Shown here one piece after another: positions 15,752 through 58,255 of a stretch of DNA of 64,000 bases. The notes under the pieces were generated by a model. The model was not told the origin of the DNA. It saw only the letters and a program-made list of their open reading frames with translations, and ran no database searches. The translations under genes and the position numbers were made by a program. The stretch comes from Eledone cirrhosa (taxonomy: Eukaryota). Within the stretch, counting starts at the first letter, position 1; each line of letters opens with the position of its first letter. The DNA lies in NCBI GenBank assembly GCA_964016885.1, contig OZ024750.1, forward strand, positions 44,764,001 to 44,828,000. Reading direction: 5' to 3'.

Positions 15752-15935
15752 ATATATATATATAAACATATATATATAGATATTTTTCCATTTCTCCGAG
15801 GGTTATAAACCCCACTATCAGGCTAGAAATTTCTTTAGTCTAAAATACGGTGAAAGCTTATAATTTCTAATTTCTAATTTCAAACTCGCGCACGGTTTCA
15901 AAAACATACTTACATGTTTACGTTTATAATTTGCT

Positions 15936-15991
<56 letters not shown>

Positions 15992-32787: not shown

Positions 32788-32869
32788 TATATATATATAT
32801 ACGTATATATATATATTAGTATTGGTGCCGCTCTGAAATATGAAATAACGATGTATACATCAACGATGT

Positions 32870-33210
32870 ATACATGAATGTATGTATAGTATATTTAGCA
32901 ATATATGGCATGCTTAATGAAAAACATTTAGAAGACCATTCGCTATGAATTTTCAAGTAGTGAAGTGACTTGATGTCACTTACTTATTCTCGGCAAATAA
33001 CAAGAGAGAGTGATCGACAGTCTGTTTCTCGCTTGTGAGCGTCTATGAAGACCACACACTCCGCTGCCTTTGCCGAGAATTATAGAAGCTGAATTCTTAG
33101 CCGAAAATAAGTGACATTGTCACTACTTTAAAACGCGTAACGAATGAACTTCTAAATGTTTTTAATAAAACATACAGTATATTGCTAAATATACTATACA
33201 TACATTCATA
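32870..33210. repeat. Diverged long inverted repeat in (TA)n
   Basis: atgaatgtatgtatagtatatttagcaatata.. / ..tatattgctaaatatactatacatacattcat, with arms of ~120 bp. Confidence 0.75.
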
Positions 33211-33227
33211 TATATATATATATATAG

Positions 33228-35993: not shown

Positions 35994-36027
<34 letters not shown>

Positions 36028-36031
<4 letters not shown>

Positions 36032-36392
36032 CACCGTATGTTTGACTAAAGAAACTTTAGCCTGATAATGGGGTTTAGAAGCCTCAGATAAATGGAAAAA
36101 GATGAGTATTGACGTACATGGGAGTCGAACACACATCTTTGGTTATCCAGACCACTGTGCTACTATTACACCAACACATCATGTGATGTGTTGGTGTAAT
36201 GGTAGCACAGTGGTCTGGATAACCAAAGATGTGTGTTCGACTCCCATGTACGTCAATACTCATCTTTTTCCATTTATCTGAGGCTTCTAAACCCCATTAT
36301 CAGGCTAAAATTTCTTTAGTCAAAAATACGGTTAAATTTATTCTATTTTCTAATTTCAAACCTGCTCACTGTTTCAAAACATACTTACTTGT
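36028..36392. mobile_element. Head-to-head palindrome of a tRNA-headed SINE-like element in (TA)n; other copies at 15781-15915 and ~57560-57760
   Basis: Arms 36028-36181 and 36184-36339. 36185-36255 folds as a cloverleaf with A box TGGTGTAATGG and B box GTTCGACTC. Confidence 0.85.
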
Positions 36393-36826
36393 CACACATA
36401 TATATATATATATACATAAAGGTACTTTGATAAAAACAATGCATGATGTTTTCTTATTGTGGATTACAATGTTTTCACTGTGTGATATTATAGAAGAGTC
36501 TCTTCGTTAAAGAATATACCACTTTCATCTCATATTTGCACTAAAAATTGATGTGTCATATTACCTGTTTATCTACTCACACACATACAAGGCACACACA
36601 TACATATACCGACATACTCACACACTGACACGCGCGCGGGCACACACACACACAAACGCACACACACACATATATATACTGTATATGTTAAATATGGTTT
36701 CTCTCTTGGTTAAGCGTAACTGCAGGGCAGTGAATTTGTATATTAGTATCTATATTCTTCTTTTCGTAAATATAGATTATTAAGTCTACTTCAATAATTA
36801 ACGTAGTGTTAAACTAGTAACGTCAC

Positions 36827-51642: not shown

Positions 51643-51685
<43 letters not shown>

Positions 51686-51838
51686 ATAAATGCTCTGAAA
51701 TAGCGATATATATGTGAATATAGACATAGAATATTCGAAAATATTCTGTATGTTTATAATAAACATTTTGAAGACCTAATCGCTATAGAATAGAATACGT
51801 CACGTATTACAATTAGATTCTCGATAAAAGCAAGGGAA

Positions 51839-51881
51839 GTAATCTACGCGTTTCATTCTCGTTAGAAATCATCAGGACTAC
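51839..51881 (-). ncRNA. Type I hammerhead ribozyme in the inverted leading unit
   Basis: Exact reverse complement of the array hammerhead (gtaatctacgcgtttcattctcgttagaaatcatcaggactac). Confidence 0.85.
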
Positions 51882-52266
51882 ATATCCAGTGCTTTTATCG
51901 AGAATGACACAGCTAGAGACTTATAGAATACTTAGCTGTGTACAGGAACTGGTTTGAAAGAGCGGTTGCCGGTCCGGCAGAAATTAGAAATTGGAATAAA
52001 TGCTCTGAAATAGCGATATATATGTGAATATAGACATAGAATATTCGATCTATAGCGATTAGGTCTTCAAAATGTTTATTATAAACATACAGAATATTTT
52101 CGAATATTCTATGTCTATATTCACATATATATCGCTATTTCAGAGCATTTATTCCAATTTCTAATTTCTGCCGGACCGGCAACCGCTCTTTCAAACCAGT
52201 TCCTGTACACAGCTAAGTATTCTATAAGTCTCTAGCTGTGTCATTCTCGATAAAAGCACTGGATAT

Positions 52267-52309
52267 GTAGTCCTGATGATTTCTAACGAGAATGAAACGC
52301 GTAGATTAC
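52267..52309 (+). ncRNA. Type I hammerhead ribozyme (first of 10 plus-strand copies, every 310 bp)
   Basis: GTAGTC-CTGATGA-T TTCT AACG AGAA T-GAAA-CGCG-TA-GATTAC. Stem I is GTAGTC/GATTAC, stem II is TTCT/AGAA, and stem III is the palindrome ACGCGT. The GUA triplet predicts a cut after 52303. Stem I is extended by GGA/TCC and ATTCTCGATAAAAGCA/TGCTTTTATCGAGAAT. Confidence 0.85.
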
Positions 52310-55219
52310 TTCCCTTGCTTTTATCGAGAATCTAATTGTAATACGTGACGTATTCTATTCTATAGCGATTAGGTCTTCAAAATGTTTATTATAAACATAC
52401 AGAATATTTTCGAATATTCTATGTCTATATTCACATATATATCGCTATTTCAGAGCATTTATTCCAATTTCTAATTTCTGCCGGACCGGCAACCGCTCTT
52501 TCAAACCAGTTCCTGTACACAGCTAAGTATTCTATAAGTCTCTAGCTGTGTCATTCTCGATAAAAGCACTGGATATGTAGTCCTGATGATTTCTAACGAG
52601 AATGAAACGCGTAGATTACTTCCCTTGCTTTTATCGAGAATCTAATTGTAATACGTGACGTATTCTATTCTATAGCGATTAGGTCTTCAAAATGTTTATT
52701 ATAAACATACAGAATATTTTCGAATATTCTATGTCTATATTCACATATATATCGCTATTTCAGAGCATTTATTCCAATTTCTAATTTCTGCCGGACCGGC
52801 AACCGCTCTTTCAAACCAGTTCCTGTACACAGCTAAGTATTCTATAAGTCTCTAGCTGTGTCATTCTCGATAAAAGCACTGGATATGTAGTCCTGATGAT
52901 TTCTAACGAGAATGAAACGCGTAGATTACTTCCCTTGCTTTTATCGAGAATCTAATTGTAATACGTGACGTATTCTATTCTATAGCGATTAGGTCTTCAA
53001 AATGTTTATTATAAACATACAGAATATTTTCGAATATTCTATGTCTATATTCACATATATATCGCTATTTCAGAGCATTTATTCCAATTTCTAATTTCTG
53101 CCGGACCGGCAACCGCTCTTTCAAACCAGTTCCTGTACACAGCTAAGTATTCTATAAGTCTCTAGCTGTGTCATTCTCGATAAAAGCACTGGATATGTAG
53201 TCCTGATGATTTCTAACGAGAATGAAACGCGTAGATTACTTCCCTTGCTTTTATCGAGAATCTAATTGTAATACGTGACGTATTCTATTCTATAGCGATT
53301 AGGTCTTCAAAATGTTTATTATAAACATACAGAATATTTTCGAATATTCTATGTCTATATTCACATATATATCGCTATTTCAGAGCATTTATTCCAATTT
53401 CTAATTTCTGCCGGACCGGCAACCGCTCTTTCAAACCAGTTCCTGTACACAGCTAAGTATTCTATAAGTCTCTAGCTGTGTCATTCTCGATAAAAGCACT
53501 GGATATGTAGTCCTGATGATTTCTAACGAGAATGAAACGCGTAGATTACTTCCCTTGCTTTTATCGAGAATCTAATTGTAATACGTGACGTATTCTATTC
53601 TATAGCGATTAGGTCTTCAAAATGTTTATTATAAACATACAGAATATTTTCGAATATTCTATGTCTATATTCACATATATATCGCTATTTCAGAGCATTT
53701 ATTCCAATTTCTAATTTCTGCCGGACCGGCAACCGCTCTTTCAAACCAGTTCCTGTACACAGCTAAGTATTCTATAAGTCTCTAGCTGTGTCATTCTCGA
53801 TAAAAGCACTGGATATGTAGTCCTGATGATTTCTAACGAGAATGAAACGCGTAGATTACTTCCCTTGCTTTTATCGAGAATCTAATTGTAATACGTGACG
53901 TATTCTATTCTATAGCGATTAGGTCTTCAAAATGTTTATTATAAACATACAGAATATTTTCGAATATTCTATGTCTATATTCACATATATATCGCTATTT
54001 CAGAGCATTTATTCCAATTTCTAATTTCTGCCGGACCGGCAACCGCTCTTTCAAACCAGTTCCTGTACACAGCTAAGTATTCTATAAGTCTCTAGCTGTG
54101 TCATTCTCGATAAAAGCACTGGATATGTAGTCCTGATGATTTCTAACGAGAATGAAACGCGTAGATTACTTCCCTTGCTTTTATCGAGAATCTAATTGTA
54201 ATACGTGACGTATTCTATTCTATAGCGATTAGGTCTTCAAAATGTTTATTATAAACATACAGAATATTTTCGAATATTCTATGTCTATATTCACATATAT
54301 ATCGCTATTTCAGAGCATTTATTCCAATTTCTAATTTCTGCCGGACCGGCAACCGCTCTTTCAAACCAGTTCCTGTACACAGCTAAGTATTCTATAAGTC
54401 TCTAGCTGTGTCATTCTCGATAAAAGCACTGGATATGTAGTCCTGATGATTTCTAACGAGAATGAAACGCGTAGATTACTTCCCTTGCTTTTATCGAGAA
54501 TCTAATTGTAATACGTGACGTATTCTATTCTATAGCGATTAGGTCTTCAAAATGTTTATTATAAACATACAGAATATTTTCGAATATTCTATGTCTATAT
54601 TCACATATATATCGCTATTTCAGAGCATTTATTCCAATTTCTAATTTCTGCCGGACCGGCAACCGCTCTTTCAAACCAGTTCCTGTACACAGCTAAGTAT
54701 TCTATAAGTCTCTAGCTGTGTCATTCTCGATAAAAGCACTGGATATGTAGTCCTGATGATTTCTAACGAGAATGAAACGCGTAGATTACTTCCCTTGCTT
54801 TTATCGAGAATCTAATTGTAATACGTGACGTATTCTATTCTATAGCGATTAGGTCTTCAAAATGTTTATTATAAACATACAGAATATTTTCGAATATTCT
54901 ATGTCTATATTCACATATATATCGCTATTTCAGAGCATTTATTCCAATTTCTAATTTCTGCCGGACCGGCAACCGCTCTTTCAAACCAGTTCCTGTACAC
55001 AGCTAAGTATTCTATAAGTCTCTAGCTGTGTCATTCTCGATAAAAGCACTGGATATGTAGTCCTGATGATTTCTAACGAGAATGAAACGCGTAGATTACT
55101 TCCCTTGCTTTTATCGAGAATCTAATTGTAATACGTGACGTATTCTATTCTATAGCGATTAGGTCTTCAAAATGTTTATTATAAACATACAGAATATTTT
55201 CGAATATTCTATGTCTATA

Positions 55220-55280
<61 letters not shown>

Positions 55281-57387: not shown

Positions 57388-58255
57388 GAACAAAATTGCA
57401 AATGGTTACTGACATTGAAAAGATCTACACAAAAATCATTAGTTTAATGCTTATGGGAAAAAGCAAAAGATCGCTCAACATATCGGGCGCTGGTCCTTCA
57501 TCATGAAAGAGTGAAATTAAGATTGAGATGTTGCCAGAAGGGATAAAGCGGAAACAAAGATGCAATATGTTTAGCACAATGGTATGGATACCCTAACATG
57601 TTGGTTCGACGCCCATATACGTCAATACTAATCTTTTTACCATTTCTTAGAGGGTTCTAAAAACCACTATCAGGCTAAATTTTCTTTAGTAAAAAATACG
57701 GCGAAAGCTTCTATGTCTAAGTTCAAACTCACTTGGTGTTTCAAAACATACTTACTTGAATTAAGTATGTTGTGATAAGGTTTGGAAGTTATTTCTAAAA
57801 TGTGGCATTGCCTCGTGTTTTAACTTGTATCGTATTTGTTAAATTCTCTTTTTAAGTAGTAATATTGTTTGGTCTTATATCATAACAAAGATGGCGTAAT
57901 TTGCCGTAGAAGGGAAGTGTGCTGTAGAAGGAAAGGAATTCGAAACTAAAAACAAATACTTTTAATAGCATTTATGAGATATATATATATATATATATAT
58001 TTACTCATAAATTCATATATACAGAAATATCAAAGGTATTATTCCTACAAGATTATTACAATTTGATGCCATATAAGATTCGGTACACAAATATTCCCCA
58101 AAGAACAATACCTATACAATTCAATATATATTCTCTTCTCAAATGTTAAAGTTCATATAAATACGTACACACGTATATATTGATAAATATATTTATCTCT
58201 CTCTTTCTCTCTCCCACGCTCTTTCTCTCTCTATATATATATTTATATATATATA

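Follow-up and report, generated by a model that had tools for sequence, protein, structure and literature searches.

We describe in Eledone cirrhosa a family of short interspersed and tandem repeats that is, in all likelihood, a real, ribozyme-free, tRNA-bearing parasite of the Penelope type. Its RNA is probably processed into circles by host tRNA splicing (TSEN/RtcB); this second reading builds on a predicted fold in which the anticodon loops of two neighbouring units pair with each other.

The copy in the window

A palindromic copy of the family lies in the window, by which we mean the whole stretch of 64,000 nucleotides analysed here (Table 1; positions within the 260-bp repeat unit are given as unit numbers). 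The preliminary description of this stretch had reported a near-perfect inverted repeat centred on the 5' end of a cloverleaf, and both features hold. The arms run from 36024 to 36181 and from 36184 to 36341 (158 nt, 97% complementary), and the cloverleaf scores 40.2 bits against the Rfam tRNA model (cut-off 29), with its stems as first described; ARAGORN calls a tRNA on each arm. Since the arms differ at 5 of 158 positions, the palindrome is not an identical-arm sequencing chimera. The right arm is indeed the longer one (it extends to 36394) and is 97.6% identical to the family consensus over unit 1-210; each arm runs out into (TA)n, without a poly(A) tail. Two private variants, at unit 50 and unit 100, are common to the two arms, as expected of a single insertion event. 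The leader that precedes the tRNA in complete units is missing from this truncated copy.

The A box had been called tRNA-Gln-like. This stands for the A-box region, which matches host tRNA-Gln genes at 17 of 18 positions, but not for the tRNA as a whole, of which only about 44 of 72 positions are identical in a comparison that covered the host genes for tRNA-Gln, tRNA-Thr and tRNA-Asp. Two further stretches of the window listed as copies do belong to the family, but one of them carries no tRNA and the other starts at unit 19. A palindrome centred on the tRNA 5' end, as in the window copy, represents a minority class (11 of 170 arms in the family end at unit 255-10); the commonest 5' end falls at unit 61-70 (61 of 170 arms).

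Table 1. Features of the family in the window
Feature	Position	Strand	Remarks
Right (long) arm	36183..36394	+	Unit 259-260 and 1-210; ends at the family's long fixed 3' end
Left (inverted, short) arm	36029..36181	-	Unit 260 and 1-152; (TA)n end near the short 3' end class
tRNA-like module	36185..36255	+	Lies inside the unit; class I cloverleaf with Gln-like A box and GGA in the anticodon position
tRNA-like module of the inverted arm	36110..36180	-	ARAGORN and Rfam
Anticodon loop C32-A38	36215..36221	+	Positions 32-35 = 36215-36218, self-complementary, CUGG in the window copy
Predicted tRNA-splicing cut	between 36220 and 36221	+	On pairing of two tandem units
T-loop A58	36240	+	Likely m1A site; family 5' ends accumulate 5-14 nt 3' of A58
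Pyrimidine strand	36258..36276	+	T5 at 36265-36269; pairs with the 19-nt leader in tandem units, lengthening the acceptor stem
(TA)n target, left end of the window copy	35997..36028	.	Sequence
(CA)2(TA)n target, right end of the window copy	36395..36414	.	Sequence
5'-truncated copy, 290-bp subfamily, no tRNA, in (TA)n	15780..15938	+	
Older decayed copy	57572..57758	+	Unit 19-207, 84% to consensus

A tandem repeat with an internal tRNA

The family is a non-coding 260-bp repeat made of a 71-nt tRNA-like module, a body of about 140 nt and a 50-nt leader that precedes the next tRNA; across subfamilies the unit measures 260, 285 or 290 bp, inside the retrozyme range of 170-400 nt. In this AT-rich genome of 3.0 Gb, an exact 22-mer of the unit occurs 549 times and a loop-spanning pattern 2662 times, both figures being lower bounds on the copy number of the whole family. 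The leader pairs with the sequence 3' of the tRNA and thereby places the cloverleaf at the tip of a long stem. Young tandem units score 48-51 bits as tRNA in Rfam. Across lineages that are 73-98% identical the stems are kept with compensatory changes, the first acceptor pairs being lost in two lineages; a copy-level test of stem-preserving variants was discarded because it was confounded by fold-back artefacts and CpG decay. Young lineages have both boxes, A and B, intact; two diverged lineages have an altered B box and still keep the tRNA fold. A T5 run lies 10 nt 3' of the tRNA.

Two arrays, one of 24 and one of 16 near-full units, retain a fixed 3' end that lies in (TA)n; the larger one has an inverted arm. 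Private variants are shared by tandem units (9 per 3786 nt) and by inverted arms (13 per 5613) at about 16 times the rate observed between loci (40 per 275865), a pattern that fits repeated copying of one monomer and also copying from homogenised arrays. All seven of the 10-kb stretches sampled across 180 kb (L405-L411, G000:C28, 19.48-19.66 Mb) are filled by a satellite of the 290-bp subfamily, a possible source locus.

Two observations concern other tRNA-related sequences of the genome. L034 and L200 are chimeras in which the T loop of the element's tRNA is the point of fusion with the body of the classic tRNA SINE of this genome, which looks like the work of a template switch or of recombination. 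Host tRNA-Gln genes occur in clusters (L268-L278, L279), one tandem set having a spacing of 277 bp.

Penelope-type insertion anatomy

For insertion anatomy we took 108 position-ordered loci, of which the 22-mer list supplied 85 and a second motif 23; five loci that overlapped or lay in arrays were left out, and both motif sets depend on the 3' part of the unit. The 5' ends were analysed on 170 arms, two three-segment loci being dropped. Two features of the window copy proved to be family-wide when counted across the genome: inverted arms are present at 66 of the 108 loci, and 132 of 176 3' ends run into (TA)n, poly(A) being found at 1 of the 176. Contigs from three runs on a single sample show no more than that the element and its inverted joints are present. 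The unit junction is crossed at 42 of the 108 loci, giving partial tandems. Most 3' ends (152 of 176) fall into two clusters about 45 nt apart, at unit 151-180 and 201-220, and 49 of 64 two-arm insertions combine one short with one long end. Target-site duplications were flagged at 14 of the 108 loci, nearly all of them microsatellite, with one clear 18-bp case. This insertion (L067) lies outside microsatellite sequence and is bounded at both ends by the 18-bp direct repeat, a likely target-site duplication. The hallmarks described for Penelope-like elements (PLEs) are 5' truncation, an inverted 5' copy, partial tandems, a one-sided tail and (TA)n targets (PMC8557442); the anatomy of the family matches them, which supports PLE-type mobilisation, a conclusion that we hold with high confidence.

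An ordinary LINE-driven tRNA SINE, the palindrome being a one-off rearrangement, would account for a tRNA-derived module with A and B boxes and for a window copy that starts at the tRNA. It is hardly credible against the frequency of inverted arms, the near absence of poly(A) and the copying of leader and tandems; neither LINE-like tails nor a one-off palindrome characterise the family. The preliminary description had proposed a Pol III SINE mobilised by PLE machinery rather than by a LINE. Its second half is supported by the family-wide anatomy and by a 3' terminus common with a Neptune-like PLE, but its first half is not. Instead of heading the element, the tRNA is internal to a circularly permuted tandem unit, and 54 of the 65 copying passes that reach the tRNA 5' end go on into the upstream leader; the T5 run after the tRNA and the altered B box of the two diverged lineages also speak against a Pol III SINE.

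PLEs with a GIY-YIG domain are abundant in this genome (10596 first-look candidates). Sampled PLE ORFs mostly have a Neptune-type Cys-rich linker, and two long ORFs match the RT family. Comparison of 3' ends revealed one PLE family whose last 8 bases are those of the short end of the young element (8 of 8), and 11 of 12 terminal bases match between the PLE-family terminus and the CAUG lineage, a match of little length that AT microhomology partly imposes; the identical 7-mer also stands at unit 234-240, where it does not serve as an end. A search of 50 PLE loci (30 plus 20 GIY-YIG loci) yielded no more extended, BLAST-level similarity with the unit, so the Neptune-like partner is a candidate only. 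Near five family loci, PLE fragments lay in no fixed linkage to the element. At several loci (L132, L136, L139, L144, L138, L149), Neptune-like PLEs have folds resembling hammerheads, with non-canonical cores, close to the 3' end.

Absence of a ribozyme from the unit

No Rfam ribozyme, hammerhead and twister included, was matched in the tandem units. A GAAA-containing motif had been likened to the 3' half of a hammerhead, a likeness that is rejected, and hammerhead elements had been noticed beside the copies. GAAA is a hairpin loop that varies by lineage (GAAA, GATA, GGAA, GTAA) and is mutated in the right arm of the window copy. Family loci are not enriched in hammerhead neighbours: 30 of 108 have one, and so have 6 of 23 (TA)n runs unrelated to the family; these neighbours reflect shared targets. 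That a degenerate hammerhead or another ribozyme in the unit does the cutting is very improbable. In its favour, a GAAA with a palindromic stretch after it recalls dimer-type hammerheads, and hammerhead-like cores of a non-canonical kind occur at PLE ends in this genome; but in addition to the lack of an Rfam match, both the GAAA and a CUGA-like motif vary between lineages.

The same genome harbours a 314-bp hammerhead retrozyme family with the same anatomy and a ribozyme at the tip of the equivalent stem. The two families have two colinear blocks in common (1-6 of 500 shuffles), one block being the motif by which the family was found. In a global scaffold test, 3 of 1000 shuffles reached the score; a common origin of the tRNA unit and the 314-bp family is only suggestive, since the reverse-complement control also scored (12 of 1000). 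Within the window, about ten units of 310 bp, every one of them bearing a type I hammerhead, make up a young array at 51680-55222, which has an inverted arm and (TA)n at its ends; it is a standard non-LTR retrozyme, clearly related to the 314-bp family, of which an inverted, rearranged copy lies at 32864-33217. Several other short hammerhead-bearing elements, mostly inverted pairs (15444/15565, 31259/31327, 55578/55737, 56120/56463, 55396, 57172 and 21034), are PLE-type remnants of other families.

A self-complementary anticodon loop

Positions 32-35 of the tRNA-like module are self-complementary in the consensuses of all seven lineages (CUGG, CGCG, CCGG, CAUG), each of which keeps the C32-G35 pair plus an inner pair. 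U33 is nearly invariant in working tRNAs, and the self-complementary loops give it up. Among the matches listed (100 of 2662), CTGG accounts for 47, CGCG for 22, CCGG for 18 and scattered others for 13; CGCG and CCGG each characterise a subfamily set apart by diagnostic changes of its own. In diverged lineages, about 78% identical in this region, the loop is CATG in 8 of 16 cases and CCGG in 3 of 16. The CpG decay of CCGG is one-sided, the pair-keeping CTGG being found 27 times against 3 for the pair-breaking CCAG (among the matches listed, 100 of 461). By simple draw, four different inner loop pairs would all be complementary in 15 of 1820 cases, the four loop types not being fully independent draws as the lineages are related. 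All four fall within the 5 of 16 inner dinucleotides for which a strand-swapped dimer is predicted to be more stable than two monomers; for a real dimer, at L012, the predicted values are -91.4 vs -84.6 kcal/mol, and the commonest loop, CUGG, gains only 0.4 kcal/mol in a fixed-structure comparison.

These patterns bear on the idea that a PLE copies linear RNA read through from satellite arrays, no circle being involved, and that the tRNA is a passenger and the palindromes are a coincidence. Large arrays exist, and homogenised arrays can yield shared private variants, but coincidence sits badly with four different inner pairs that are all complementary, with one-sided CpG decay and with stems kept by compensatory changes across lineages; we judge this explanation improbable.

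In the predicted strand-swapped tandem dimer, a 4-bp helix lies between two 3-nt bulges and a whole unit is inserted between positions 37 and 38. The predicted C-G proximal pair, 3-nt bulge and 37/38 site are found in seven of seven lineages. Metazoan tRNA introns have been described as having a C-G proximal pair, a 3-nt bulge and a distance of 6 nt between the C and the end of the exon, and as being circularised by RtcB (10.1101/497545); since the geometry of the predicted dimer equals theirs, it is a predicted TSEN substrate, whose product RtcB would seal. Animal TSEN is reported to cut only at 37/38 and to read the tRNA body (PMC10485636), and TSEN and RtcB domains were found in this genome. 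Hammerheads give 2',3'-cyclic phosphate and 5'-OH ends, which RtcB seals in retrozymes (PMC7229834); the predicted TSEN products would bear the same ends. The dimer requirement of the tRNA unit would likewise parallel the palindromic helix III of dimeric hammerheads (PMC4209133). The predicted ligation would restore the monomer sequence and leave no new DNA junction, so the TSEN route is not provable from the genome. At the predicted cut, 5' ends do not clearly accumulate (6 of 72 at unit 31-40).

We also observed an element of about 1.7 kb (L253, L255-L263; at L261, for example, about 1195-2860) that occupies TA-rich sites and has a fixed left end in 10 of 10 copies. Inside it lie an inverted repeat of some 175 bp that complements its right end, and a high-scoring tRNA whose loop positions 32-35 are self-complementary in 7 of 10 copies (CTGG, CCGG, CTAG).

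A copying stop next to A58

Of 140 copying passes, 61 halt at unit 61-70, a rate roughly ten times the background; A58 of the tRNA is unit 56. In the CATG lineage, which has no A58 and carries the same bases at 61-70, a single pass of 31 stops there (27 of 30 loci used; Fisher p 6e-6 vs 61/140), in a lineage that also differs at two T-loop bases and in age. A CATG palindrome as the cause of the pile-up was rejected: 19 of 42 single-arm loci also end at 60-72, and the lineage without A58 shows no pile-up with the same bases. Methylation of A58 (m1A58) blocks reverse transcriptase. It is a common tRNA modification (PMC10275265), and the pattern of stops suggests that the template RNA is folded and handled, that is, modified, like a tRNA in the cell. 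The offset of a few bases from A58 would result from trimming as far as the closest stretch of AT microhomology.

The tRNA start also shows a modest excess of 5' ends (per-base hazard 0.012 vs 0.004; 11 of 65 passes), the window copy being among those that start there, and this leaves room for initiation by Pol III, or cutting by RNase P, beside the TSEN route or instead of it. Under such a scheme the element is still mobilised by a PLE, but its tRNA is a Pol III promoter and/or a site of RNase P/RNase Z cutting, as in an Sm-alpha-like element without ribozyme, and the loop palindrome merely helps two RNAs to dimerise for two-arm insertion. The intact A and B boxes of young lineages and the commonness of two-arm insertions agree with it, but the T5 run follows 10 nt after the tRNA, two lineages with an altered B box still spread, and the palindrome sits at 32-35, leaving exactly 3 nt, instead of being centred on the loop. 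A precise tRNA-less circle made by RNase P plus RNase Z was rejected, the leader-trailer junction that it predicts having 0 matches in the genome; a block of RNase P by leader-trailer pairing is not shown in the available part of PMC6037731. We consider this scheme unlikely, though deserving of some weight.

Discussion

The preferred reading, processing by TSEN and RtcB, can be laid out as a cycle. Tandem copies would be transcribed as multimers. Adjacent cloverleafs would swap strands, positions 32-35 forming a bulge-helix-bulge that turns a full unit into an intron at 37/38, a step that combines observed sequence geometry and covariation with predicted folding. TSEN would cut both bulges and RtcB would close the unit to a circle; there one intact tRNA would re-form and no longer be a substrate. 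The template would be methylated at A58, which may often halt copying and may thus be the cause of the observed 5'-end pile-up. Finally, a presumably Neptune-like PLE reverse transcriptase/GIY-YIG endonuclease would prime at (TA)n from fixed sites and run round the circle, and its products would be the truncated, partial-tandem and inverted two-arm insertions seen in the genome. We lean slightly towards regarding this as a class of mobile element, in which a tRNA decoy replaces the ribozyme, TSEN/RtcB makes the unit circle, a PLE copies it and m1A58 leaves a footprint in DNA, and which would extend the same route to ribozyme-free, tRNA-bearing tandem elements in other animals.

Metazoan non-LTR retrozymes are described as short non-coding tandem units of 170-400 nt, for which PLE dependence and an RtcB-sealed circle have been proposed and whose cutting needs a palindromic-loop dimer (PMC7229834; 10.64898/2026.07.22.740005). 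The present element is like them in the size of its tandem unit, in being non-coding, in its likely PLE dependence, and in the RtcB-sealed circle and the dimer via a palindromic loop, both here predicted; unlike them, it has no hammerhead, bears a tRNA cloverleaf at the tip of the long stem and would be cut by a host protein enzyme. Schistosoma's elements Sm-alpha and Sj-alpha are tandem, tRNA-Gln-related, SINE-like retroposons processed from multimers (PMC6765202; PMC2770079). They combine a hammerhead with a tRNA-derived promoter and are said to be driven by Pol III, whereas here there is no ribozyme and T5 follows the tRNA. With Neptune-type PLEs and non-autonomous derivatives such as MRC1 (PMC8557442) the family shares 5' truncation, the inverted copy, partial tandems, the one-sided tail and (TA)n, but it has no ORF and no extended pLTR similarity to any PLE sampled, and it contains a tRNA module. 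The C-G proximal pair, the 3-nt bulge, the 37/38 site and the RtcB circle, all predicted, are those of tricRNAs and TSEN substrates (10.1101/497545; PMC10485636). In contrast to tricRNAs, the 'intron' would be a whole mobile unit with a permuted tRNA and would form only between tandem copies. Permuted red-algal tRNA genes provide an analogy to this arrangement. As in tRNA-derived SINEs, the A and B boxes derive from a tRNA and retroposition is non-autonomous; unlike in those SINEs, the tRNA is internal, a LINE tail is absent (the 3' ends of the genome's LINEs were outside the comparison) and most copies lose most of the tRNA.

The element thus belongs to a known kind, the short PLE-type parasite, with a tRNA in place of the ribozyme as its new feature; the mechanism would be new as well if cleavage is confirmed. 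Our literature search found no TSEN-processed or ribozyme-free tRNA-bearing PLE parasite; Repbase, Dfam, subscription journals and preprint supplements lay outside its scope, and the family may be named there. In the accessible part of a 2026 review of the tRNA ligase complex, the links to transposons are SOS splicing and U6/L1 ligation, not this route (PMC13247085). Repeat libraries would probably mislabel such elements as SINEs. The repeat annotation of Octopus vulgaris lists 893 unclassified, recently active SINE families (PMC13282606), among which tRNA-bearing PLE parasites could hide.

If the TSEN/RtcB reading is true, this is a natural mobile element that uses tRNA splicing to process and circularise its RNA, a role that we did not find in the literature searched; animal TSEN gains a non-tRNA class of substrate, and ribozyme and host protein nuclease are interchangeable in the retrozyme cycle. 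The element also makes it testable whether Penelope enzymes copy RNA circles: with its defined start sites and built-in reverse transcription stop, the 260-nt unit provides the still-missing in vitro assay of PLEs with a minimal substrate.
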